The notes beneath the pieces are model-generated. The model searched no databases. It had not been told where the DNA came from and saw only the letters and a list, made by a program, of their open reading frames with translations. Made by a program: the position numbers and the translations under genes. From Candidatus Annandia pinicola (GTDB lineage Bacteria; Pseudomonadota; Gammaproteobacteria; Enterobacterales; Enterobacteriaceae_A), in contig NZ_CP045876.1 in NCBI RefSeq assembly GCF_020541245.1, positions 1 through 32,000 of the forward strand: a stretch of 32,000 nucleotides of DNA. Reading direction: 5' to 3'. Every line of letters begins with the position of its first letter. The stretch's first letter is position 1. This document shows, one piece after another, positions 1-28,483 of the stretch.

Positions 1-71
1 GAAATTTGATCAGCAATTTTATCCGGATGTCCTTCTGAAACAGATTCAGATGTAAATAAAGTTTTTATCAT
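1..71 (-). CDS. metK: S-adenosylmethionine synthetase, N-terminal fragment (gene runs off the left edge)
   Basis: The reverse complement of 1-71 reads ATG ATA AAA ACT TTA TTT ACA TCT GAA TCT GTT TCA GAA GGA CAT CCG GAT AAA ATT GCT GAT CAA ATT. This translates to [23 protein letters not shown], the near-invariant MetK N-terminus (E. coli ...[20 protein letters not shown]). It is divergent from tkt, as in E. coli. Confidence 0.9.
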   Translation of the reverse strand, partial: [23 protein letters not shown]

Positions 72-295
72 TTTTTTCTCATAAAATTAAAATTTAATTT
101 AATTAAAATATTATTTTAATTAAATTTATTAAAAAATATAATTTAATATTAAATTATATCTATACATATTTATAATATAATTTAATTATCATTAAAAAAA
201 ATTTAAATTTATTATTTTAATAAATTTATAATATTTTTAATATAATTTATATAATATTTATTATTTTAACTAAAAAAATAAGGATTTTTAATGAT

Positions 296-2305
296 ATGTT
301 AACAAATTCAAAATTTGCTAATATTATTAGAATTTTAAGTATAGATACAATTCAAAGTGTTAAATCGGGTCATCCTGGAACTCCTATGGGAATGGCTGAT
401 ATTGCAGAAGTTTTATGGTGTAATTATATGAATCATAGTCCTTCTAATCCAAATTGGATAAATAGAGATAGATTTGTTTTATCTAATGGTCACGGTTCAA
501 TGTTAATATATAGTATACTACACTTAACTGGATATGATTTATCGATTGAAGATATTAAAAAATTTCGTCAATTACATTCTAAAACCCCTGGACATCCTGA
601 ATATGGTTGTACTCCGGGAATAGAAGTAACAACTGGACCTTTAGGTCAGGGTATAGCTAATGCAGTTGGTTTTGCTATAGCTGAAAAAACCTTATCATCA
701 CAATTTAATAAACATAATTATAAAATTATAGATCACTATACTTATGTATTTGCTGGTGATGGTTGTATGATGGAAGGAATTTCTCATGAAGCATGTTCTT
801 TAGCTGGTAAATTAAAATTAAAAAAATTAATTGTTTTCTATGATAATAATAAAATATCTATTGATGGAAATACTGAAGGATGGTTTGTTGATGATACATG
901 TAAAAGATTTAAATCTTATAATTGGAATGTAATAAATAATGTTAATGGTCATAATCACGAAGAAATTTTTAATGCAATTAAAAAAGCTAAATCTAATAAT
1001 AATAATAAACCTTCTTTAATAATTTGTAATACAATTATTGGGTTTGGTTCTCCTAATAAATCTGGAAAAAATGAAATACATGGAGCTCCTTTAGGAGAAA
1101 AAGAAGTATTATTAACTAGAAAAAAATTAAAATGGAAATATGATCCATTTGTTATTCCAAATGAAATTTATAAAAAATGGAATGCTATAAATATAGGTAA
1201 AATAAAAGAAAAAGAATGGAAAAATAAATTTAAAAAATATAAAAAAAAATACCCTGATTTAGCTATTGAATTTTTACGTAGAATTAAAGGTAAGTTACCT
1301 AATAATTGGAATTATATTTTTAAAAAAAAAATTTTTAATTTACAAAATTTTCCTCAAAATATTGCTAGTAGACAAGCTTCATATAAAATAATAGAATTAA
1401 TAAATGATATTTTACCTGAATATATTGGTGGTTCTGCTGATTTAGCAGCAAGTAATTTAACTATATGTCCAAAATCTAAACCTATAAATAAATATAAAAA
1501 TGGAAATTATATACATTATGGGGTTCGTGAATTTGGTATGACTGCTATTGCAAATGGTATATCTTTATATAAAGGATTTATAGTTTCTACAGCATCTTTT
1601 TTAACTTTTTTAGATTATGCTAAAAATGCTGTTAGAATGGCATCTTTAATGAAAATACGTCAAATTTTAATTTATACACATGATTCTATTGGTTTAGGTG
1701 AAGATGGACCTACACATCAACCTATTGAACAATTATCAAGTTTACGTAATATTCCCAATATAAGTGTTTGGCGCCCTTGCGATCAGGTTGAAACAGCAAT
1801 ATCATGGAAATGTGCAATTGAAAAAAAAAATGGACCTACTGCTCTAATACTTTCTAGGCAAAATTTAATTCAACAAAAAAGAAATAAAAAACAATTATCT
1901 AATATATATCGAGGTGGTTATATATTAAAAGAATCTCATAATAAACCAGAAATAATATTAATATCTACTGGTTCTGAAGTAGATTTAGCAGTAAAAGTTT
2001 ATGATGAATTATTAAATTTAAATTATAGAACAAGATTAATATCTATGCCATCAAGTGATGTTTTTGATAAACAAAATATATATTATAAAAAAAAATTATT
2101 ACCTAACAGTTCTAAACTAATTGTTTCTATTGAAGCATCTAATACAAATTATTGGTTAAAATATACAGGCTTAAGTGGTTTAAGAATAGGAATTGATTGT
2201 TTTGGTGAATCAGCTCCTGCAGATAAATTATTTTCATTTTTTTGTTTTAATGTAAAAAGTATTATAAAAAAAATAAAATTAAAATTAAATGTTTTTTATA
2301 AATAA
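296..2305 (+). CDS. tkt: Transketolase
   Basis: 669-aa ORF. The N-terminus [34 protein letters not shown] matches E. coli Tkt[35 protein letters not shown]. The ThDP motif [13 protein letters not shown] is present. An AAGGA Shine-Dalgarno sits at 280-284. Stop is TAA. Confidence 0.96.
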
Positions 2306-2307
2306 AT

Positions 2308-2345
2308 TATATGTATATATATTATTATTAATATATATGCATATA
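2308..2345 (+). terminator. Candidate intrinsic terminator hairpin between tkt and pgk
   Basis: The arms are TATATGTATATATATT (2308-2323) and AATATATATGCATATA (2330-2345). They form 16 bp with one G-C pair and one G-U pair around a 6-nt loop, ATTATT. The hairpin starts 3 nt after the tkt stop. It is an A/T-rich stem, so thermodynamically weak. Confidence 0.3.
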
Positions 2346-2368
2346 TTAATAAAGGTATTAAATAAATA

Positions 2369-3538
2369 ATGTTAAATATAAAAAATATAAATATTAAAAA
2401 TAAAAAAGTTTTAATAAGAACTGATCTAAATGTACCCATTTTTAATAAAAAAATTGTATCAGACGTTCGTATTTTAGCTGCATTACCTACTATTAAACTA
2501 GCTATTAAAAAAAATGCAATTGTTATTATTATGTCCCATTTAGGACGCCCTAAAGAAAATTCATATGATAATAAATATTCTTTAAAATATGTATCTAATT
2601 ATTTACAAAATAAAATTAAAAATATTAAAGTTTTATTAATTAAAAAATATATAAATGGTTTTAATTTTAAATCTGGAAATTTATATATTTTAGAAAATGT
2701 AAGATTTAATAAAGGTGAAAAAAAAAATAGTTTATTATTATCAAAAAAATATGCTTCATTATGTGATATATTTGTAATGGATGCATTTGGTTCTTCACAT
2801 AGAAAACAATCATCTACTTATGGTATTTCCTTATTTGCTAAAATATCTTGTTTTGGATTATTATTAATTTCAGAAATAAATACTTTAAAAAATTATTTAA
2901 ATAAACCTAAAAGACCAATGACTGTTATTCTTGGGGGTTCTAAAATATCAACTAAATTTAATATATTAGAATATTTAATAAAAATATCAGATAATATTAT
3001 TGTAGGTGGTGGTATTGCAAATAATTTTATAGCAATTAATAATAATATAGGAAAATCTTTATATGAAAAAGAATATATAGAAAAATCAAAAAAATTTTTA
3101 AAAAGTAATAAAATATTAATTCCAGAAGACGTTTATATAGGAAAATCATTATTATTTAATGAAAAATCTACAAAAAAAAAAATAAAAAAAATATATGATA
3201 ATGAAATAATTTTAGATTTTGGGATTAAAACAATAATTAACATAATTAAAATATTAATAAGTTCTAATACTATTTTATGGAATGGTCCAATTGGAATGTT
3301 TGAATTATTTAATTTTAGAAAAGGAACTAGAATAATTTCAAAAACTATTTCTATTTTAAAATCTTTTTCTATAATAGGTGGTGGTGATACAATTTCAGCA
3401 ATTGATATGTTTGATGATAAAAAAAATTTTTCTTATATATCTACAGGGGGAGGAGCTTTTTTAAAATTTTTAGAAGGTAAAGAATTACCAATTGTAAGGT
3501 TAATTAATAATATTGAAATAATTTTAAAAAAAATATAA
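2369..3538 (+). CDS. pgk: Phosphoglycerate kinase
   Basis: 389-aa ORF. KKVLIRTDLNVPI...SDVRILAALPTIKLAIKKNA...MSHLGRP parallels E. coli KRVFIRADLNVPV...[20 protein letters not shown]...TSHLGRP. The C-terminal GGGDTISAI and STGGGAFL motifs are present. Confidence 0.95.
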   Translation: MLNIKNINIKNKKVLIRTDLNVPIFNKKIVSDVRILAALPTIKLAIKKNAIVIIMSHLGRPKENSYDNKYSLKYVSNYLQNKIKNIKVLLIKKYINGFNFKSGNLYILENVRFNKGEKKNSLLLSKKYASLCDIFVMDAFGSSHRKQSSTYGISLFAKISCFGLLLISEINTLKNYLNKPKRPMTVILGGSKISTKFNILEYLIKISDNIIVGGGIANNFIAINNNIGKSLYEKEYIEKSKKFLKSNKILIPEDVYIGKSLLFNEKSTKKKIKKIYDNEIILDFGIKTIINIIKILISSNTILWNGPIGMFELFNFRKGTRIISKTISILKSFSIIGGGDTISAIDMFDDKKNFSYISTGGGAFLKFLEGKELPIVRLINNIEIILKKI

Positions 3539-3581
3539 TTTATAAAAATATTTAATAATAAATTATTAAGGATTATAAAAA

Positions 3582-4334
3582 ATGATTAAAGATTTAAGTT
3601 ATTTTAAAACATATATTTTAGATTATTTATATTTAAAAAGATTATTTTATTTATTTAAAAAAAATAAAAATAATATAAATTTAATAAAATTTGATAATAT
3701 TTATAAAATAAATGATATTACAAAAACTATTTTAAATATAAAAAAATTTACTATAATAAAATTATTAATTGATGATTCAAAATTTATAATAAATAATAAA
3801 TTTAGAAATGAAAATTATATTAAAGAATTAATTTATTTAAAATATATAAATATAATTATAAAAAAAAAACCAATATTATTAAATATCAATCAATGTTCTA
3901 AAAATAATTTTTTTTTAATAAATAATTTTTTAAAGATAATAAATTTAAATAAAATAAATAAAAAAAAATCTTTATTTTCTATATATACATTAAATTTATC
4001 TATATATTTTTTAGAAAATAATATAAAAAAAATTATTAGATATGTAGTTATAATGTTTAAACTTGGTATTATATTAGAAATAAAATTAAATTTTAAAATT
4101 AAAAAAAAAAAATTTAATATTTTTTTTTTAGATAATAATTTAAAAAAAATAATTTATATTTGTAAAAAAATAAGTAAAGTAAATAAAAATTTTATAATAT
4201 CAATAAAATTTAATAGTAATTATAAAATTTATACATCGATAAATGAAATAACAATATTTAAATTATTAAAAAAAATATTAATTATAAAAAATATTTTTTC
4301 AAAAAAAATACCAAATTTTTTACCTTTAGAATAA
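3582..4334 (+). CDS. fbaA: Degenerate, C-terminally truncated class II fructose-bisphosphate aldolase homologue. It is probably catalytically dead (a pseudoenzyme or a late-stage pseudogene that is still open).
   Basis: 250-aa ORF with an AAGGA SD 8-9 nt upstream, in the same position and orientation as fbaA after pgk in E. coli. Several blocks align without gaps to E. coli FbaA as I recall it. PILLNINQCSK aligns with PVILHTDHCAK. KSLFSIYTLNLS aligns with KPLFSSHMIDLS. MFKLGIILEIKLN aligns with MSKIGMTLEIELG. FIISIKFNSNYKIYTSIN aligns with FTIAASFGNVHGVYKPGN. NFLPLE-stop aligns with NFVFHGGSGS. The ORF has no His and only one Gly. Confidence 0.6.
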   Translation: MIKDLSYFKTYILDYLYLKRLFYLFKKNKNNINLIKFDNIYKINDITKTILNIKKFTIIKLLIDDSKFIINNKFRNENYIKELIYLKYINIIIKKKPILLNINQCSKNNFFLINNFLKIINLNKINKKKSLFSIYTLNLSIYFLENNIKKIIRYVVIMFKLGIILEIKLNFKIKKKKFNIFFLDNNLKKIIYICKKISKVNKNFIISIKFNSNYKIYTSINEITIFKLLKKILIIKNIFSKKIPNFLPLE

Positions 4335-4445
4335 TTTAATATTAATATTATTAATATACTAAAATTATAAATAATATATTTTATTATATAATTTAAAAAT
4401 AATTTTTTAAAATAATTTAAAAATATTATTTAATATTAAAATATG

Positions 4446-5123
4446 TTATATAATATTTAATAACTCATAATTTATTATTTTTATTTTTTTTTTAAAACTT
4501 AAAATAGTAATATTAGATTTTATTATTGAAAATAAACCAACAGTAATTACTCCTGGTAATGAATTTATTTTTTTTTCTAATTTAATAGAATTTTTAACAC
4601 GCATATTATATATATCTATTATAATATTACCATTTTCAGTTATAATATTTTTACGATATTTAGGAATTCCACCAATTTTTATTAATTGTTTTTCAATAAA
4701 ATATTTAGATGAAGGTATAATTTCTATTGGTAAAGGAAAATTACCTAAAATATTGATTTTTTTTGTACAATCTAAAATACATATAAATTTATCTGAATTT
4801 ATAGATATTATTTTTTCTTTTGTTAATGCTGATCCACCTCCTTTAATCATTTGCATTTTTTTGTTTATTTCATCTGAACTATCTATATAAATATCAGTTT
4901 TTTTTGTCATATTTAAATTAAATATTGGAATATTTAATTTTTTTAATTTTAAAGTAGAATTTTTAGAACTAGATATAGCAGCTTTAATAATATTTTTAAA
5001 TATATAAATAGAATTTATAAAATAATTTAAAGTAGATCCACTGCCTATCCCTATAATAATGTTTTCTTTAATATAATTTAAAGCATATAAACATGAAGAT
5101 TTTTTTAGTTTTTCTTTTTTCAT
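4446..5123 (-). CDS. rpiA: Ribose-5-phosphate isomerase A
   Basis: 225-aa ORF. [42 protein letters not shown] and [10 protein letters not shown] match E. coli [42 protein letters not shown] and IPGVVTVGLF. Confidence 0.92.
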   Translation of the reverse strand: [225 protein letters not shown]

Positions 5124-5192
5124 AATTTTATAATATTAAATAATATATTATTTAATATTTATTTATAAATTTATTTATAATTTTATTTAAAA

Positions 5193-6155
5193 TTAAAAAT
5201 CTTTAATTTTAAAAAAACAATAATTGTTATTATATATTCTTATTATATCTGTTTTTTTTATTTTTTTATTTAATACAGCTTGTATCCATATAATATCATT
5301 ATTTAATTTTACTATATATAAAATATTACCAATTATTTTCCAATTTTTTTTTATTTTAAATTCTAAATATTTTTCGTTACCATTTATATTTTTTGATATA
5401 CCTATTAAAAAATATAATAATTTTTTATTTGTTTTTAAAATTTGAGTTTTTGTTATAATTTCTTGACCATTATAACATCCTTTATTAAAACTTATGCCAT
5501 TAAAATTATTTAAGTTTAATGATTGGGGTAAGAATTTTTTTGAATTTTTAATATTTATATTAGGAATCCCAAATTTAATATCTAAAGATAACCATTGATT
5601 ATTGTTAATGTAAATTAATTTATTAATTATATAATTTTTAATTTTATTACTTTTTTTTTTATTTACAATTATAAAAAATCTTATAATAGAATCATTTAAT
5701 TTTATTAATATATATATTTTATCTATAATTATAATTTCATTAATATTTAATTTTTTATTAAAAAAATTATTTAATAAATTTATAGTTTTATTTCCTATAA
5801 TACCAAAAATAATATTTTTATAATCTAATTCTATATTAACTTCTAAAAATATAGAATATTTTTTAAGTATTTTTAAATGATATTTAACTATATTTTTTCT
5901 TTCTATTAAAATATAATGATTTTTTTTATATTTAAATACTTTTATAGAACTAATTACTTTTCCTTTATAATTACAATGAGCACATGTCATACATTTATTA
6001 TTTAATTTATTAATATCTAATGTTAATTGATTTTGTAAATATTTTTTACTATCATTACCATAAACGTGAATTAAAGACCAATCATTAAGATACATCCATG
6101 TATTATAAATATTTTTTGAATATAAAATATTATTTAAATAATTTATTTTATTCAT
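5193..6155 (-). CDS. ygfZ: Folate-binding tRNA-modification/Fe-S repair protein YgfZ
   Basis: 320-aa ORF. LNDWSLIHVYGNDSKKYLQNQLT aligns with E. coli [23 protein letters not shown]. The signature ISFNKGCYNGQE aligns with ISFKKGCYTGQE. Confidence 0.85.
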   Translation of the reverse strand: MNKINYLNNILYSKNIYNTWMYLNDWSLIHVYGNDSKKYLQNQLTLDINKLNNKCMTCAHCNYKGKVISSIKVFKYKKNHYILIERKNIVKYHLKILKKYSIFLEVNIELDYKNIIFGIIGNKTINLLNNFFNKKLNINEIIIIDKIYILIKLNDSIIRFFIIVNKKKSNKIKNYIINKLIYINNNQWLSLDIKFGIPNINIKNSKKFLPQSLNLNNFNGISFNKGCYNGQEIITKTQILKTNKKLLYFLIGISKNINGNEKYLEFKIKKNWKIIGNILYIVKLNNDIIWIQAVLNKKIKKTDIIRIYNNNYCFFKIKDF

Positions 6156-6283
6156 AAATTTTATTAGATAATTAATAATTTATAAAAAAATTATTATATA
6201 ATAATAAATATTTTTATTAAATAATAATATAAATTTATTATAAATTTAATATATTTTTTATATTAAATATTATATTTTTTTTA

Positions 6284-7384
6284 ATGATTAAAAAAACTAA
6301 TTTTATGTTAGAAATATATTATACAAAAAATAATCTAAAAAAATATATTAATTATTATAAATTAATTAAAAATATATTTAAATATAAAATAAAAAATAAA
6401 TATTTAAAAAATATTAAAAGTACTTTTAATAATATTAAAATTTATAATAATTTTAAAGAAATTAATGATATAAAAAAAAATAAAAAAAAACTAAAGTTTA
6501 TTATTAAAAGTATAAATAAAATATATCATAATATAAATAAAGTAAAATATTTATATAAAATTTATAAAATAAATAAAAATAAATTATATGATATTAAGTT
6601 ATCTTCTATATTAAAAAAAATAAAATTTAAAATAAAAAAAATAGAATTTAATTGTGTTTTTTTAAATAAATATGATATTTTAAATTGTTATTTAAATTTA
6701 CAATCAGGGGTTGGTGGATTAGATTCCCAAGATTTTTCTAGTATGTTAATGAAAATGTATATAAAATGGTCTATAAATCAAGGTTTTAAAATTAATATAT
6801 TAGAAACTTCATATGGTGATTTAATTGGTATAAAATCAACAACTATTAATATAATAGGTAAATATGCTTTTGGTTTATTGAAAAATGAAAATGGAATACA
6901 TCGTTTAATAAGAAAAAGTCCTTTTAATGCAAATAAAAAAAGACATACTTCATTTAGTTCTGTTTTTGTTTATCCAGAAACAATTAATAGTAATAATATT
7001 AATTTAAATATTAAAGATTTAAAAATAGAAGTATATAAATCATCTGGTTCTGGGGGACAACATGTTAATAAAACAGAATCAGCTGTACGTATAACACATA
7101 TTCCTACTGGAATTAAAACACAATGTCAATCTTATAGATCACAACATCAAAATAAAAGTATTGCAATTAAAAAAATAATAAATAAATTACATCAAATAAA
7201 TATTAATAAAAAAAAAATAAAAAATTATAAAATTAAAATAGGTTGGGGAAATCAAATAAGATCTTATATATTAGATAATTCTTTAATTAAAGACTTAAGA
7301 ACAGGAATAGAAAAAAATAATGTAAATAGTATTTTAAATGGAAATGGTTTAAATTATTTTATAAAATCTAATTTAAAATTATAA
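6284..7384 (+). CDS. prfB: Peptide chain release factor 2, encoded as one uninterrupted frame (no programmed +1 frameshift)
   Basis: 366-aa ORF. It contains the RF2-specific SPF motif (IRKSPFNANKKRHTSFSSVFVYPE) and the GGQ motif (SGSGGQHVNKTESAVRITHIPTGI). It is followed by lysS, as in the E. coli prfB-lysS operon. The N-terminal ~110 residues are almost entirely K/N/I/Y and barely alignable. An alternative start is Met8 at 6305. Confidence 0.9.
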   Translation: MIKKTNFMLEIYYTKNNLKKYINYYKLIKNIFKYKIKNKYLKNIKSTFNNIKIYNNFKEINDIKKNKKKLKFIIKSINKIYHNINKVKYLYKIYKINKNKLYDIKLSSILKKIKFKIKKIEFNCVFLNKYDILNCYLNLQSGVGGLDSQDFSSMLMKMYIKWSINQGFKINILETSYGDLIGIKSTTINIIGKYAFGLLKNENGIHRLIRKSPFNANKKRHTSFSSVFVYPETINSNNINLNIKDLKIEVYKSSGSGGQHVNKTESAVRITHIPTGIKTQCQSYRSQHQNKSIAIKKIINKLHQININKKKIKNYKIKIGWGNQIRSYILDNSLIKDLRTGIEKNNVNSILNGNGLNYFIKSNLKL

Positions 7385-8982: not shown

Positions 8983-10230
8983 ATGTCTATTTTATTACAA
9001 AAATTTGAATTAAATATATATAATGTTATATATAATTACGTAATAAAAAGCTATAAGGGTCCATTTTGGTTTTATAATGCAAATATTATTAAAAATAAAA
9101 TAATGAAATTAAAAAAATTTGATATTATAAGATTTGCTCAAAAATCATGTTCTAATATTAATATTTTAAAATTAATAAAAAAATATAATGTACAAATTGA
9201 TGCAGTTTCTTATGGAGAAATAGAAAGAGCTTTAGAATCTGGATTTGATATAAATAAAATTATATTTACATCCGATATTTTTGATTACTATTCATTAAAA
9301 AAAATAATTAAACATAAAATAACAGTTAATATAGGTTCTATAGATATGTTACATCAATTAGGTAAATTATCTCCTGGTCATAAAATTTGGATAAGAATAA
9401 ATCCTGGTTTTGGTCATGGACATAATAAAAAAACTAATACTGGGGGTGAAAATAGTAAACATGGAATTTGGTATAATAGTATATTATTACATGACATAAT
9501 AAAAAAATATAATTTTAAATTAAAAGGAATACATATGCATATAGGTTCTGGAGTAGATTATAAACATCTACAAAATGTATGCTACTCAATGATGAATCAA
9601 ATAACATATAAAAACAAAAATATTTTATTTATTTCAGCAGGTGGGGGGTTATCAATACCTTATAAAAAAAAAGAAAAAACTATTGATATTAAACATTATT
9701 TTAATTTATGGAATAATGTTAGAAATAAAATTTCTAATTATTTAGGTCATAAAATACAATTAGAAATAGAACCAGGAAGATTTTTAACTGCTGAATCAGG
9801 AATGTTAGTAACTCAAATTAAATCAGTAAAGTATATAAAAAATAAATATTTTGTTTTAATAGATGCTGGTTTTAATGATTTATTAAGGCCTGTAATGTAT
9901 GGTAGTTATCATAAAATTTCTATTATAGATTATAATGGAAATCATATTTCTAAAAATAATTTTAAAATTCCTACTGTAATAGGAGGTCCTTTATGTGAAT
10001 CTGGAGATATATTTACTCAAAAATCTAATGGTGAAATTAAAATAAGATTTTTACCAAAAGTATTTCCTGGAGATTATTTAATATTTCATGATACTGGGGC
10101 TTATGGTGCTTCAATGTCATCTAATTATAACAGCAGGCCATTAATACCTGAAATATTATTTTATAGAAATGAATTAAAAATTATTAGAAAAAAACAAAGA
10201 ATGAATGATTTATTAAAATTAGAAAAATAA
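8983..10230 (+). CDS. lysA: Diaminopimelate decarboxylase
   Basis: 415-aa ORF with an AAGGA SD 7 nt upstream. RFAQKSCSNINIL carries the PLP lysine. Also present are NPGFGHGHNKKTNTGGENSKHGIW, EIEPGRF, GPLCESGD and DTGAYGASMSSNYNSRPL, which are near-identical to E. coli LysA blocks. Confidence 0.96.
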   Translation: MSILLQKFELNIYNVIYNYVIKSYKGPFWFYNANIIKNKIMKLKKFDIIRFAQKSCSNINILKLIKKYNVQIDAVSYGEIERALESGFDINKIIFTSDIFDYYSLKKIIKHKITVNIGSIDMLHQLGKLSPGHKIWIRINPGFGHGHNKKTNTGGENSKHGIWYNSILLHDIIKKYNFKLKGIHMHIGSGVDYKHLQNVCYSMMNQITYKNKNILFISAGGGLSIPYKKKEKTIDIKHYFNLWNNVRNKISNYLGHKIQLEIEPGRFLTAESGMLVTQIKSVKYIKNKYFVLIDAGFNDLLRPVMYGSYHKISIIDYNGNHISKNNFKIPTVIGGPLCESGDIFTQKSNGEIKIRFLPKVFPGDYLIFHDTGAYGASMSSNYNSRPLIPEILFYRNELKIIRKKQRMNDLLKLEK

Positions 10231-10270: not shown

Positions 10271-10342
10271 CTCCCCCGACTGGATTCGAACCAGTGACAT
10301 ACGGATTAACAGTCCGCCGTTCTACCACTGAACTACAGGGGA
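10271..10342 (-). tRNA. tRNA-Asn (anticodon GUU)
   Basis: The reverse complement is TCCCCTGTAGTTCAGTGGTAGAACGGCGGACTGTTAATCCGTATGTCACTGGTTCGAATCCAGTCGGGGGAG. It folds as a 72-nt cloverleaf with a 7-bp acceptor stem, GTTC/GAAC D stem, anticodon loop CTGTTAA, and T arm ACTGG-TTCGAAT-CCAGT. It is very close to E. coli tRNA-Asn. The 3' CCA is not encoded. It is a G/C island in an A/T spacer. Confidence 0.95.
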
Positions 10343-11447: not shown

Positions 11448-11989
11448 TAATTTAAAAAAAAATACAAATATATTATTTAAATAATATTTATAAATATTAA
11501 AATAATATTATAAAAAAAATATATAAAATATTATATTATTATTAAATTATATTAAAATTAATTATAAATATTTTAAACATTTATTAATTAAAAATATATA
11601 ATAGCCTATAAAAAAATAAATGTTGATATATATTAATATATAAAATTTAAAATTTAAATTATTAATTATATTATATAAAATACAATAAATTATTTTTTTA
11701 ATAAAAATAATTTTATATAAAATATTTTTATTAAATAAATAATATTTAACCTTAAATGATAATTTAAAATAAATTAAAAATTATTAATTATATTAAATAT
11801 ATATTTTTATATTTAATAATATAATATAAATTATATTATTTATAAAAATCAAAAATTTAATTAAAATAAATTAATTTATTAATTATAATTAGATAAAATT
11901 GTTATATTTTATATTATCATTAATATTATAATTTTATTAAGATTTATTTTTTATAAAATAATATAAATAAAATTTAATGGTTAATTTTT
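11448..11989. other. 542-bp almost pure A/T non-coding spacer (about 17 G/C by my hand count)
   Basis: No ORF, no G/C island and no recognisable RNA motif. It lies where E. coli carries hfq-hflXKC-purA-nsrR-rnr between miaA and rlmB. Confidence 0.8.
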
Positions 11990-13354: not shown

Positions 13355-13394
13355 TAAATTAAAATAAAATTTATCAGTACAAAGGATGAATTGT

Positions 13395-13865
13395 ATGAAA
13401 ACTATTTTAGTTAAAAATATAATTGAAAAAAAAAATAAAGATTATAATATAATTCATGTAAAATCAGGATATGCTCGTAATTTTTTAATACCTTATAATA
13501 AAGTAAAAAAATGTGATATTTTTAATAATAAAAAAACTAAAAAAACTATTTTAACAAAAAAAAATTATATAAAAAATAATATTAAAAAAAAATATTTTAA
13601 TTTATGTACAATAAAAAAAGAATATATTATAAATACAAAATCAAAAATATATGTAAAAAAAAAATCAGTATTACCTAATTATAATATGATTATGAAAGCA
13701 TTTAAAAAAAATAATATTTTAAAATTTAATAAAAAAAAAATAAAAATTTCTAAAAAAATATTATTTAATAATATGTTAAATAATATTGTTTTATTTCCAA
13801 ATAAATATTTAAAATCAATTTTATTATTATATTCTAAAAAAAATAAAATAATTAAAAATTATTAA
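13395..13865 (+). CDS. rplI: 50S ribosomal protein L9 (start moved to the second ATG)
   Basis: The N-domain HVKSGYARNFLIPYNK matches E. coli NVKAGYARNFLVPQGK. AAGGA at 13382-13386 overlaps the track's ATG at 13386 but sits 8 nt before the ATG at 13395. MKTILVKNI also aligns with E. coli MQVILLDKV. The C-terminal domain is K/N/I-rich and barely alignable. Confidence 0.8.
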   Translation: MKTILVKNIIEKKNKDYNIIHVKSGYARNFLIPYNKVKKCDIFNNKKTKKTILTKKNYIKNNIKKKYFNLCTIKKEYIINTKSKIYVKKKSVLPNYNMIMKAFKKNNILKFNKKKIKISKKILFNNMLNNIVLFPNKYLKSILLLYSKKNKIIKNY

Positions 13866-14226
13866 ATAATACGTAAGCCGGGTTCTGTTTTAACAGTCAT
13901 ATATCTAGATTATTAATTACTTAATAATTCAAGCAGCTTACCAAGGATATAAAACGGGTAAAAATCCTTATTTAGCCTTGCTCCAAATGGAGTTTACATA
14001 GCCATATTTGTTACCAAATATGCGGTGTGCTCTTACCACGCCTTTTCACCTTTACTATAATTTAATAAAAAATTATATTATAATTATAGAAGTATTTTTT
14101 CTTTTGCACTAGTCGTTAGTTTATATTAACTACCCAGAAGTTATCTGGCATCTTTACCCTATGGAGCCCGGACTTTCCTCTATTATTATATTATAAACTA
14201 TAATAGCGACTGTTCAATTATTTAAT
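13861..14226 (-). ncRNA. rnpB: RNase P RNA, bacterial type A
   Basis: The reverse complement contains ACAGTCGC, GAGGAAAGTCCGGGCTCCATAGGG, ACGACTAGTGCAAAAGA, GGTGAAAAGGCGTGGTAAGAGCACACCGC, GTAAACTCCATTTGGAGCAAGGCTAAATA, GGTAAGCTGCTTGA and ACAGAACCCGGCTTA. These occur in the same order as the E. coli M1 RNA conserved regions. The ends ATTAAATAAT (5') and ATTATTTAAT (3') are exact complements, giving the P1 stem. Peripheral helices are filled with A/T. End coordinates are +/- a few nt. Confidence 0.93.
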
Positions 14227-24676: not shown

Positions 24677-26785
24677 ATGTCACGTACAACACCTATTTCA
24701 AATTACCGTAATATTGGTATAAGTGCTCATATAGATGCTGGTAAAACTACTACTACTGAAAGAATTTTATTTTATACTGGAGTTAATTATAAGATTGGTG
24801 AAGTACATGACGGTGCAGCAACTATGGATTGGATGGCTCAAGAACAAGAAAGGGGAATTACTATTACTTCAGCAGCTACTACAACATTTTGGTCTGGAAT
24901 GAATAATCAATTTAAACCACATAAAATTAATATAATTGATACTCCAGGACATGTAGATTTTACTATTGAAGTAGAAAGATCAATGAGAGTTTTAGATGGT
25001 GTTGTTATGTTATATTGTGCTGTTGGTGGTGTTCAACCTCAATCAGAAACAGTATGGCGTCAAGCTAATAAATATAAAGTTCCTAGAATTGCATTTATTA
25101 ATAAAATGGATCGTATAGGTTCTAATTTTTTAAAAGTGATTGATCAAATGAAAAATAAATTGTATGCATGTCCAGTTCCAATTCAATTACCTATTGGATC
25201 AGAAAATAATTTTGTTGGTGTTATTGATTTAATAAAAATGAAAGCTATTTATTGGGATGATAAAAATAATGGTATTTATTTTAAATATTGTGATATTCCT
25301 AAAAATATGTTAAAAGAATCAAAAAGATGGAATAAAAAATTAATAGAAAGTGCATTAGAAGATAATGAATATTTAATGGAAAAATATTTAGATGGAATTG
25401 ATATTTCTGAAAAAGAAATAAAATTAGAATTAAGAAATCTTGTATTAAAAAATAAAATTATGATAGTTACATGCGGATCTTCTTTTAGAAATAAAGGAGT
25501 TCAAGCCATGTTAGATGCAATTATTGATTATTTACCATCACCAAAAGATAAAATTTGTAATAAAAATATTTATTTTAATAAAAGTAAAAAAAAAAATAAT
25601 AAAAATAAAGAACCTTTTTCTGCTTTAGCTTTTAAAATATCTAATGATTCATTTGTAGGAAACTTAACTTTTTTTAGAGTTTATTCTGGTATGATAAAAA
25701 CTGGAGATATAATCTTAAATTCAGTAAAAAAACAAAAAGAAAGATTAGGAAGAATAGTACAAATGCATGCAAATAAAAGAGAAGAAATTAAAGAAGTACA
25801 TTCTGGTGATATAGCAGCAGCTATAGGTTTAAAAAATGTTACAACAGGGGATACTTTATGTGATCCTGATAATAATATAATTTTAGAAAAAATAGATTTT
25901 CCAGAACCAGTAATTTCCGTTGCTTTAGAACCAAAAACTAAAATTGATCAAGAAAAAATGGGAATGTCTTTATCAAAATTGGCTAAAGAAGATCCTTCTT
26001 TTAAATTTTGTACTGATTTAGAATCTAATCAAACAATTATTTCTGGAATGGGGGAATTACATTTAGAAATTATTGTAGATCGTATGAAAAGAGAATTTAA
26101 TGTTGAAGCTAATATAGGAAAACCTCAAGTTGCTTATAGAGAAACAATAAAAGAAAAAGTTATTAATGTTGAAGGAAAATATATTAGACAATCTGGTGGT
26201 AGAGGACAATATGGACATGTAGTAATTGATTTATCTCCATTAAAAAATAGTAAATCAAATTATTTATTCATTAATGATATTAAAGGTGGTGTTATACCTA
26301 ATGAATATATATTAGCAATTAATAAAGGAATTCAGGAACAATTAAAATCTGGACCATTAGCAGGTTATCCAGTGGTAAACATATTAGTTAGATTACATTT
26401 TGGTTCTTACCATGATGTAGATTCATCTGAATTAGCTTTTAAATTTGCAGCTTCTATGGCTTTTAGAGATGCTTTTAAAAAAGCTTGTCCTGTTTTATTA
26501 GAACCTATTATGAAAGTTGAAATAATTACTCCAGAAAGTTATATGGGAGAAGTTATTGGTGATTTAAATAGAAGAAGGGGAATGATAGAAGGAATGGAAA
26601 GTAATTTAATGGATAAAATAATTACATCTAATGTACCTTTATCAGAAATGTTTAATTATTCAACTGATTTAAGATCAAAAACTCAAGGTAGAGCATTATA
26701 TTCTATGGAATTTTTAAAATATAGTGAAACTCCTAATTTAATTTCAGAAAAAATTATTAAATTACGTGGTAAAAAAAATATTTAA
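24677..26785 (+). CDS. fusA: Elongation factor G
   Basis: 702-aa ORF with a [41 protein letters not shown] and long blocks such as [33 protein letters not shown] are near-identical to E. coli EF-G. It is noticeably more G/C-rich than its surroundings. Confidence 0.98.
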
Positions 26786-26822
26786 GATTAATAATTGTTA
26801 TATTATAAAAAATAAGGAAATT

Positions 26823-28007
26823 ATGTCTAAAGAAAAATTTCAAAGAATTAAACCACATATTAATGTTGGTACTATAGGTCATGTAGATCATGGAAAAACA
26901 ACTTTAACAGCAGCTATAACTACAGTACTATCTAAAATTCATGGTGGTTCTGCTAAAGCTTTTGAACAAATAGATAATGCTCCTGAAGAAAAAGCTCGTG
27001 GTATAACTATTAATACTTCTCATGTAGAATATAATACTAGTAAACGTCACTATGCTCATGTAGATTGTCCTGGACATGCAGATTATGTTAAAAATATGAT
27101 AACAGGGGCTGCTCAAATGGATGGAGCTATTTTAGTAGTTGCTGCTACAGATGGGCCTATGCCTCAAACAAGAGAACATATATTATTAGGAAGACAAGTT
27201 GGGGTTCCTTATATAATGGTATTTTTAAATAAATGTGATATGGTTGATGATGAAGAATTATTAGAATTAGTAGAAATGGAAGTTCGTGATTTACTTACAC
27301 AATATGAGTTTCCTGGTAATAAAATACCAATAGTAAGAGGGTCTGCTTTAAAAGCTTTAGAAGGTGATCCAAAATGGGAACAAAAAATTGTAGAATTAGC
27401 AAATCATTTAGATAATTATATACCAGAACCTAAAAGAGATATTGATAAACCATTTTTATTACCTATTGAAGATGTTTTTTCAATATCTGGAAGAGGAACA
27501 GTAGTTACTGGTCGTGTTGAAAGAGGATCTATCAAAATTGGAGAAGAAATTTCTATTATTGGAATAAAACCAACTACAAAAACAATATGTACTGGTGTAG
27601 AAATGTTTAGAAAATTATTAGATGAAGGAAGAGCTGGTGAAAATATTGGAGTTTTATTAAGAGGTACTAAAAGAGAAGAAATAGAAAGAGGACAGGTGTT
27701 AGCTAAACCAAATACTATTAAACCTCATACTAAATTTGAAGCAGAAGTATATATATTATCTAAAGAAGAAGGGGGTCGTCATACTCCATTTTTTAAAGGA
27801 TATCGTCCACAATTTTATTTTAGAACAACAGATGTTACAGGTTTAATTGAATTACCTAAAGGCGTTGAAATGGTAATGCCTGGAGATAATATAAAAATGA
27901 ATGTTGTATTGATACATCCTATAGCTATGGAAGATGGTTTAAGATTTGCAATTAGAGAAGGTGGACATACTGTAGGGGCTGGTATTGTATCTAAAATAAT
28001 TGAATAA
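26823..28007 (+). CDS. tuf: Elongation factor Tu (start trimmed)
   Basis: [33 protein letters not shown] begins at the ATG at 26823, with an AAGGA SD 4 nt upstream. The track start at 26766 is a GTG inside fusA that adds 19 non-homologous residues. The product is 394 aa, the same length as E. coli EF-Tu. Confidence 0.98.
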
Positions 28008-28011
28008 AAAT

Positions 28012-28440
28012 ATGAATTTAAAATATAAATTTTATAAAAAAAATAGGGCATTTTTAAAAAATGCCCTAATTATTAATAATTTATATTTATTTTTAAAAAA
28101 AAAAAAATTTTTTTTTATAATAATAATTTTTTTTTTATTATTAATAAATAATTTTTTTTATACAACTATTAAATATTATAAACATATAATAATTAATATT
28201 ATATTATTAATTAATTTAAGCTATTTTTTTTATTTGAATTATAACAATAAAAGTATTTTAAAAAAATATTTAATTATTATAATAGATGAAATTTGTAATA
28301 TTAATTGGATAAATTATAAAAAAATTATTATAATATTTATATATACTATTTTAATTATATTATTTACATCTTTTTTTATATTTATTATAGATTATATTAT
28401 AATATATATTATTTCATTTTTAATAAAAATTAAATACTAA
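28012..28440 (+). CDS. secE: Preprotein translocase subunit SecE (start uncertain)
   Basis: It sits between tuf and rplK. It has three hydrophobic segments, as in E. coli SecE. The C-terminal part, SILKKYLIIIIDEICNINWINYKKIIIIFIYTIL...IIDYIIIYIISFL, parallels E. coli [26 protein letters not shown]...LDGILVRLVSFI. The track start at 28000 is a TTG overlapping the tuf stop, so I use the ATG at 28012. No further ATG exists in frame, so a start downstream of the hairpin would need TTG/ATT/ATA. Confidence 0.65.
   Translation: MNLKYKFYKKNRAFLKNALIINNLYLFLKKKKFFFIIIIFFLLLINNFFYTTIKYYKHIIINIILLINLSYFFYLNYNNKSILKKYLIIIIDEICNINWINYKKIIIIFIYTILIILFTSFFIFIIDYIIIYIISFLIKIKY
28044..28068 (+). terminator. 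G/C-cored 25-nt palindrome, probably a retained tuf terminator/attenuator hairpin
   Basis: TAGGGCATTTTTAAAAAATGCCCTA pairs perfectly as TAGGGCATTTT/AAAATGCCCTA. It starts 37 nt after the tuf stop and is followed by an A/T run. It is the only GGGC/GCCC pair in this neighbourhood. It lies inside the annotated 5' end of secE. Confidence 0.4.
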
Positions 28441-28483
28441 GTAATTGTATAATTAAATTTTATATAATAAAATAAGTGATAAT

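Follow-up and report, generated by a model that had tools for sequence, protein, structure and literature searches.

An intact reading frame in the fbaA slot of Candidatus Annandia pinicola: a probable aldolase relic without its catalytic residues

Introduction

Candidatus Annandia pinicola is an obligate gammaproteobacterial symbiont of Pineus adelgids, and its genome has been published from the host Pineus similis (PMC8857208). The sequence analysed here is a 32-kb window of this genome, and our subject is ORF-X, an open reading frame (ORF) of the window that follows the genes tkt and pgk. We conclude that, in the Annandia of Pineus hosts, ORF-X is probably a catalytically dead relic of the aldolase gene fbaA that is still translated and whose open frame is kept by weak selection. 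The closest described protein is FbaA, the class II fructose-1,6-bisphosphate aldolase (class II FBA; PF01116; TIGR01520/PRK09197; PDB 1DOS, 1B57, 5VJD). ORF-X shares with it common ancestry, the slot directly after pgk and colinearity over FbaA residues 1-236, with the core blocks (ORF-X/FbaA) PILLNINQ/PVILHTDH, LFSIYTLNLS/LFSSHMIDLS, ILEIKL/TLEIEL and FIISIKFN/FTIAASFG. In contrast to FbaA, to which it is about 20% identical, ORF-X has lost all catalytic and metal-binding residues and its amino-acid sequence evolves neutrally.

The nearest precedent within the superfamily is GatZ/KbaZ of E. coli, class II aldolase relatives without aldolase activity whose genes are kept; formerly annotated as non-catalytic aldolase chaperones, they are now reported as C4 epimerases (PMC11907403). 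GatZ and KbaZ are full-length, form a conserved family of their own and pair with the catalytic GatY/KbaY, whereas ORF-X is truncated and unconstrained in its sequence. Extremely degenerate but intact ORFs are found in the genomes of Carsonella, Hodgkinia, Tremblaya and Buchnera BCc. ORF-X resembles them in its extreme AT bias, in being barely recognisable and in being kept in some lineages and deleted in sisters; it differs in that its neutral rate and its excess of open frame are measured against the neighbouring genes and against its own other frames. Genes with poly(A) tracts in Buchnera and Blochmannia are said, since the work of Tamas et al. in 2008, to be rescued by polymerase slippage. 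ORF-X also carries long A/T homopolymers (A12, A10, T10), but its frame is intact in the DNA and no rescue is needed; we count its homopolymers as a sign of weak selection on expression fidelity and not as a mechanism. In the Annandia literature and supplements that we found there is no mention of aldolase, fbaA or glycolysis. The identification of ORF-X as an fbaA relic appears to be new, while the kind of object is known.

Results

Descent of ORF-X from fbaA

The ORF and the ribosome-binding motif in front of it lie as follows.

3582..4334, + strand: ORF-X, ATG to TAA, 250 codons/250 amino acids (aa), third after tkt and pgk
3568..3572, + strand: Shine-Dalgarno-like (SD-like) AAGGA, seen in the sequence, 9 nt 5' of the ORF-X ATG

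An earlier interpretation made from the letters of the window, in the following called the sequence-only reading, had described the same 250 codons, the AAGGA and an odd composition, all of which we find again. The product contains no His, no Ala, no Trp and a single Gly, and K/I/N/L/F/Y make up 82% of its residues compared to 48-72% in the neighbours. The gene has a GC content of 7.2%, with 8-31% across the 32-kb window. Its product is 100% identical to an NCBI entry of Ca. Annandia pinicola named "hypothetical protein". All comparisons between lineages are made with a second Annandia lineage (L001, a Logan assembly from SRR33594955 and SRR33594985) and with A. adelgestsuga (CP026513), whose locus was reached via its pgk protein.

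The sequence-only reading had noted a resemblance between ORF-X and E. coli FbaA. This resemblance is reproduced by three comparisons, though it is weak for the single sequence. Pfam gives no match for ORF-X, even at E values up to 10. The only NCBIfam matches are two class II FBA equivalogs, PRK09197 (E 3.3e-7; 29.6 bits against a cut-off of 297) and TIGR01520 (E 1e-4; 21.4 bits against 347.7), both far below the family cut-offs. In the HMMER search against PDB, ORF-X matches 1dos_A and 1b57_A (E 2.5e-4 for 1dos_A), and all matches with E < 0.01 are class II FBA. Alignment by hhalign to a set of 12 FbaA sequences, all drawn from loci with the order pgk-fbaA, yields Prob 97.4% and E 1.2e-11 over 225 columns, in which residues 1-225 of ORF-X are colinear with residues 1-236 (of 359) of FbaA from Met1 onwards. 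A profile search against class II aldolases, suggested as a check in the sequence-only reading, thus gives a significant match despite the lack of one in Pfam.

A profile built from ORF-X and its L001 ortholog was searched against 1.84 billion proteins and returned its own cluster and one class II FBA fragment (E 6e-5). This fragment, P0123, is a truncated class II FBA whose C-terminus …CLLYTSPSPRDRQKSRMPSSA may be translated sequencing adapter; if so, it would be an assembly chimera in public data. Metagenome contigs scanned with the ORF-X alignment gave nothing, and the protein of the window itself, looked up by exact sequence, matched no recorded contig.

The position of ORF-X agrees with the alignments. 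Among 80 fetched gammaproteobacterial pgk loci, which come from a genome-contig scan and include none from Annandia, fbaA lies 3' of pgk on the same strand in 39. It also follows pgk in the two Buchnera-like contigs that encode the nearest Pgk to that of Annandia. A random ORF unrelated to fbaA was considered and rejected, with class II FBA as the sole family matched and the ORF in the slot after pgk. Alignment and gene order together identify ORF-X as an fbaA descendant that was inherited vertically and still occupies the ancestral position, and we regard this ancestry as secure.

Structure prediction, likewise suggested in the sequence-only reading, points in the same direction. The AlphaFold2 (AF2) model calculated from the two-sequence alignment shows six alternating strand-helix units, at a low confidence (predicted local distance difference test, pLDDT, 53.8). 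In a Foldseek search of this model against PDB, the top 30 matches are all class II FBA, with template modelling (TM) scores of 0.40-0.46. Of the eight beta-alpha units of FbaA, ORF-X is colinear with about six.

Loss of the catalytic machinery

In the numbering of mature E. coli FbaA, the following sites of ORF-X correspond to catalytic positions.

3888..3893, + strand: codons of Asn103-Gln104, replacing Asp109 and the Zn ligand His110 (HTDH to NINQ; HMMER and hhalign)
4083..4085, + strand: codon of Lys168 at the position of FbaA Glu174 (hhalign mapping); Arg in L001
4095..4100, + strand: junction Lys172/Ile173, where the mobile six-residue GGEEDG loop with Glu182 is deleted (hhalign gap)
4221..4223, + strand: codon of Tyr214 at the position of the Zn ligand His226 (HMMER, hhalign); Asp in L001, not conserved

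These mappings bear out four of the exchanges named in the sequence-only reading (Asp109 to Asn, His110 to Gln, Glu174 to Lys and His226 to Tyr). The fifth, His264 to Leu, had been derived from pairing NFLPLE with NFVFHG at the C-terminus. It is not supported, as shuffled sequences score as well as this pairing (P 0.97 and 0.26). ORF-X contains no His at all, so the loss of the His ligands stands although no confident alignment is possible at His264. The change of HTDH to NINQ is common to both Annandia lineages. Replacements also affect substrate-binding positions, among them Gln59 and Ser61, and of 86 FbaA-invariant columns in the aligned range, 22 are kept in ORF-X of the window and 21 in its ortholog.

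The supported alignment ends at FbaA residue 236, while ORF-X itself ends at residue 250. Roughly the last 100 residues of FbaA are gone, which hold the final two beta-alpha units together with the HGGSG phosphate-binding strand. Downstream of the stop codon the following features are found.

4335..4445, no strand: spacer from the ORF-X stop to the rpiA stop, 111 bp, 1.8% GC
4446..5123, - strand: rpiA (Pfam PF06026), convergent with ORF-X

The 111-bp spacer is too short for the missing C-terminal third of FbaA to sit there. ORF-X thus has none of the features of a functional class II FBA (a score above the family cut-off, the Zn ligands, Asp109/Glu182, the full barrel) and should not be filed as an aldolase. 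It does show the loss of catalytic residues in a homologous protein by which pseudoenzymes are recognised. The view of the sequence-only reading that this cannot be a canonical aldolase therefore holds: the ligands are really lost, no His remains and about 100 C-terminal residues are missing. Judged by its residues, ORF-X cannot be a Zn-dependent FBP aldolase and cannot cleave fructose-1,6-bisphosphate.

The locus in related Annandia

L001 has the same gene order as the window, tkt-pgk-X-rpiA-ygfZ. Its ortholog of ORF-X has 252 aa and is 66% identical, and the start, the stop position and the NINQ motif are the same. Truncation and catalytic losses are common to both lineages and hence predate their split. 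In A. adelgestsuga, pgk ends at 9161 and rpiA occupies 9293-9949 (locus coordinates), with 131 bp of 0.8% GC in between. The slot is thus only 131 bp long, which makes the gene dispensable there. A short-word BLAST of this spacer against the ORF-X region on both strands found low-complexity matches only and no fbaA remnant.

Maintenance of the reading frame

The frame of ORF-X is intact in the window and in L001/L002. The evolutionary tests compare two lineages, the window and L001. When the 111 observed substitutions are placed at random on ORF-X, with the types of base change kept and stops allowed, 8.2 +/- 2.6 in-frame stops are expected and none is observed (P(no stop) 1-2e-4). Frames 2 and 3 hold 49 and 38 stops, and their stop gains/losses (observed 9/12 and 12/6) are close to expectation (8.0/12.0 and 8.5/9.3). 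The stop model is therefore calibrated by frames 2 and 3, and only frame 1, with no gain, departs from it.

Insertions and deletions give a similar picture. The 584 aligned bp of spacer between the same genes contain 12 internal indel events, nine with lengths other than a multiple of three. ORF-X, aligned in the same way, has one indel in 753 bp, a 6-bp in-frame insertion beside a poly-A run, where about 15 events are expected. No frameshifting indel is observed versus about 11.6 expected.

ORF-X of the window was noticed because it is open, so a fair test counts the second lineage only. For this lineage, the chance of gaining no stop is 0.011-0.014. That of gaining no frameshifting indel is 0.003, and it rises to 0.145 should indels in truth be three times rarer. 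The joint one-lineage probability is about 4e-5, or about 2e-3 at the three-times-lower indel rate. The sequence-only reading had estimated one stop per nine random codons at this composition. This value agrees well with the 542-bp non-coding spacer of the window, where every forward frame contains 20-23 stops in 180 codons, or one every 8-9 codons. By arithmetic, 250 open codons in a random sequence of such composition have a probability of the order of 1e-14. We conclude that the frame of ORF-X is maintained beyond chance in two diverged lineages.

Amino-acid change at the neutral rate

The two genes upstream of ORF-X serve, together with rpiA and ygfZ, as a reference for the substitution analysis.

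296..2305, + strand: tkt (transketolase; Pfam PF00456/PF02779), opens the same-strand block tkt-pgk-ORF-X
2369..3538, + strand: pgk (Pfam PF00162), directly 5' of ORF-X

Protein identity between the window and L001 is 66% for ORF-X and 90-94% for tkt, pgk, rpiA and ygfZ. The ratio of nonsynonymous to synonymous change (omega) is 1.31 for ORF-X versus 0.17-0.32 for the neighbours by the method of Nei and Gojobori (NG86), and 0.65 versus 0.04-0.11 by maximum likelihood (ML). In both identity and omega, tkt and pgk are far better conserved, as the sequence-only reading had stated. In the codon alignment, differences in ORF-X fall on the three codon positions as 52/33/27, without an excess at the third position.

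If stops are forbidden in the same random placement, it predicts 83.4 +/- 3.6 amino-acid differences, with 83 observed, and 12.0 +/- 3.0 codons with a synonymous difference, with 12 observed. The amino-acid identity of ORF-X has thus been unconstrained since the split. A weak signal is found at the protein level, since replacements are more conservative in hydropathy than random ones (|dKD|, the absolute change on the Kyte-Doolittle scale, 2.25 versus 2.84 +/- 0.28, P 0.015). The conservatism of the replacements in BLOSUM terms is not significant (P 0.13), and neither is the clustering of differences along ORF-X (P 0.08). The comparison of dN/dS and stops with an ortholog, which had been suggested alongside the sequence-only reading, combines an omega of about 1 with no stop where 8.2 are expected.

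Signals around ORF-X

The distance from pgk to ORF-X is 43 bp on the same strand. Between the two genes (window 3539-3581, L001 8990-9084), the lineages differ by a 9-bp indel, an insertion in L001, after which an SD-like AAAGG stands 14 nt 5' of the ATG instead of 9 nt as in the window. A distant SD-like AAAGG is also seen in front of pgk. SD spacing may matter little in this organism.

No terminator-like site was found in positions 1..6400 of the window, which include the 111-bp spacer 3' of ORF-X. A promoter scan is uninformative at such AT content (107 sites versus 90 expected), and the Rfam scan gave no match in or near ORF-X. Homopolymer runs of at least 9 bases occur at 6.6 per kb in ORF-X versus 1.7-2.9 per kb in the neighbouring genes. 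The most conspicuous pair is the following.

4101..4129, + strand: A12 tract (4101-4112) and T10 tract (4120-4129) inside ORF-X, slippage-prone

Discussion

Our preferred reading, a dead but still translated fbaA relic, joins an amino-acid sequence that drifts freely to a frame that does not break. ORF-X would probably be translated as the 3' cistron of the tkt-pgk transcript. The combination of free sequence and kept frame is unusual, and nearly neutral theory offers its simplest account. Losing the full-length product would be mildly deleterious, and loss-of-function alleles would be purged, while single replacements would be effectively neutral under the strong drift and tiny effective population size of the symbiont. 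Neutral missense change together with the exclusion of nonsense and frameshift change implies that the role demands very little of the exact sequence. The product may accordingly be a relic protein with a non-catalytic role of this kind, possibly a crude alpha/beta fold in which the hydropathy pattern alone matters. Such a crude folded relic would be in keeping with the beta-alpha pattern that is retained and with the weak signal in hydropathy. Its role would be small enough for A. adelgestsuga to lose the gene entirely, and in the Pineus-associated lineages, too, the gene is probably close to loss. The sequence-only reading had posed a frame maintained for a non-catalytic role and an unusual state of decay as alternatives. 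We find features of both together; the maintained frame stands, and the proposed part as a pseudoenzyme or structural partner is not established.

Several observations weigh against this reading. There is no measurable constraint on the amino-acid identity of ORF-X. FbaA-invariant residues are still lost lineage by lineage (K20, F22, N36, F139, L196, Y205, Y207), and as residues kept by one lineage are gone in the other, erosion continues. The gene is wholly absent at the A. adelgestsuga slot. The GC content of 7.2% is near that of non-coding DNA (0.8-6%) and well under that of the neighbouring genes (12-25%). The window and L001 differ in their SD spacing, and the A12, A10 and T10 tracts should slip and lower the yield of full-length product. 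On the side of the methods, the frame statistics come from two lineages only, the indel expectation is drawn from about 600 bp of hard-to-align spacer, and the structural model is of low confidence.

Another formulation is that ORF-X is selected for full length and frame only, either as sequence-agnostic bulk in the form of a basic, hydrophobic-patterned partial alpha/beta barrel or for translation that serves tkt-pgk. We regard this as a doubtful possibility. If true, selection on the integrity of an ORF could here be measured apart from any selection on its residues, and ORF-X would be an intermediate between gene and pseudogene that is missed by standard dN/dS screens and by pseudogene finders alike.

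Among the explanations that compete with a translated relic, selection could act on translation or on the transcript and not on the protein, for example if ribosome transit through the last cistron protected the 3' end of the tkt-pgk mRNA. The signature expected in this case is exactly that of a kept frame with a free sequence, and both the 43-bp same-strand distance from pgk and the lack of a terminator-like site in 1..6400 would suit it. Against this, A. adelgestsuga keeps tkt-pgk with 131 bp after pgk and so does without such protection, which cannot then be a general need. The conservative hydropathy of the replacements points to the product, and the mechanism is speculative. We consider this explanation unlikely.

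A further competing explanation is a late-stage pseudogene that lost its function before the split of the Pineus-Annandia lineages, stayed open by luck and is bound for deletion as in A. adelgestsuga. An omega of about 1 with amino-acid differences equal to the neutral expectation, a GC content near the non-coding level, the density of long homopolymers, differences that are not significantly clustered and the complete absence of the gene in the sister species are all in its favour. It does not account for the frame. No stop was gained against an expectation of 8.2, although stop turnover in frames 2 and 3 follows the model, no frameshift occurred where about 11.6 are expected, and even the conservative one-lineage product (about 4e-5, or about 2e-3 at the lower indel rate) is small, whereas true non-coding DNA of the window has a stop every 8-9 codons. 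The frame is disrupted neither in the window nor in L001/L002. The sequence-only reading had named sister loci riddled with stops as the sign of a pseudogene that merely happens to be open here, and we instead find an open ortholog in L001 and a clean absence in A. adelgestsuga. A neutral remnant is, in our view, quite improbable.

We reject a surviving aldolase or related sugar-phosphate enzyme with a remodelled active site, whose sole support is the maintained frame with its six N-terminal beta-alpha units colinear with FbaA, because ORF-X has no His, Asn in place of Asp109 and no Glu182 loop, because the lineages differ at the His226 (Tyr/Asp) and Glu174 (Lys/Arg) positions, because it lacks the final two beta-alpha units as well as the HGGSG phosphate site, and because a defined active site could not coexist with an omega of about 1.

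With ORF-X as a relic of fbaA, the annotation "hypothetical protein" is corrected to a dead fbaA. No functional aldolase is present at the ancestral locus in Pineus-associated Annandia, and none at that locus in A. adelgestsuga, whose empty slot indicates that Annandia can live without fbaA there. The genes tkt, pgk, rpiA, rpe and aroB are present in the window. The finding therefore bears on the supply of triose phosphate and erythrose-4-phosphate for the retained aromatic amino-acid pathway, of which aroB, tkt, rpe and rpiA lie in the window. More generally, ORF-X represents a quantified case of a gene between function and loss, in which missense change is effectively neutral and nonsense and frameshift changes are still purged. 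This is relevant to pseudogene calling where genomes are highly reduced, and also to the view that symbiont genomes decay in a nearly neutral way.

Other features of the window

Beyond rpiA follow ygfZ (minus strand), prfB, lysS and lysA. Further genes of the window are miaA, rlmB, rpsF, rpsR, rplI, ppa, ftsY, asd, aroB, rpe and trpS, as well as rpsL, rpsG, fusA, tufA, rplK, rplA, rplJ and rplL. Among the scanned ORFs of at least 70 aa, only ORF-X and one other lack a Pfam family. This second barely recognisable but intact ORF (28000-28440, + strand) lies between tufA and rplK and encodes a very hydrophobic protein of 146 aa. It matches SecE (TIGR00964) with E 3.8e-6, and its score of 26.7 bits falls narrowly short of the cut-off (27.55). 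In A. adelgestsuga, secE is listed as a pseudogene (PMC6022629). The gap from the SecE-like ORF to rplK is only 43 bp (28441-28483), so nusG appears to be missing there.

The spacer between miaA and rlmB (11448-11989) has 542 bp and 3.3% GC. In A. adelgestsuga, hflX lies directly 3' of miaA (L083 16177 onward). No hflX remnant was detected in the spacer of the window (best tblastn E 0.028), and hflX seems to have been lost in the window lineage without a detectable remnant.

The remaining features are the following.

10271-10342, - strand: tRNA
13386-13865, + strand: rplI (L9) ORF; Pfam recognises the N-terminal domain only, residues 4-39 of 159
13858-14225, - strand: bacterial RNase P RNA (RF00010, 252.6 bits), overlaps the rplI ORF by 8 bases at the 3' end of that ORF
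26766-28007, + strand: tufA ORF as mechanically called; GTG start overlaps the end of fusA (26785), Pfam match from residue 29

The remainder of the rplI product may be highly diverged. As the Pfam match of tufA begins at residue 29, the true start of this gene is probably further downstream.

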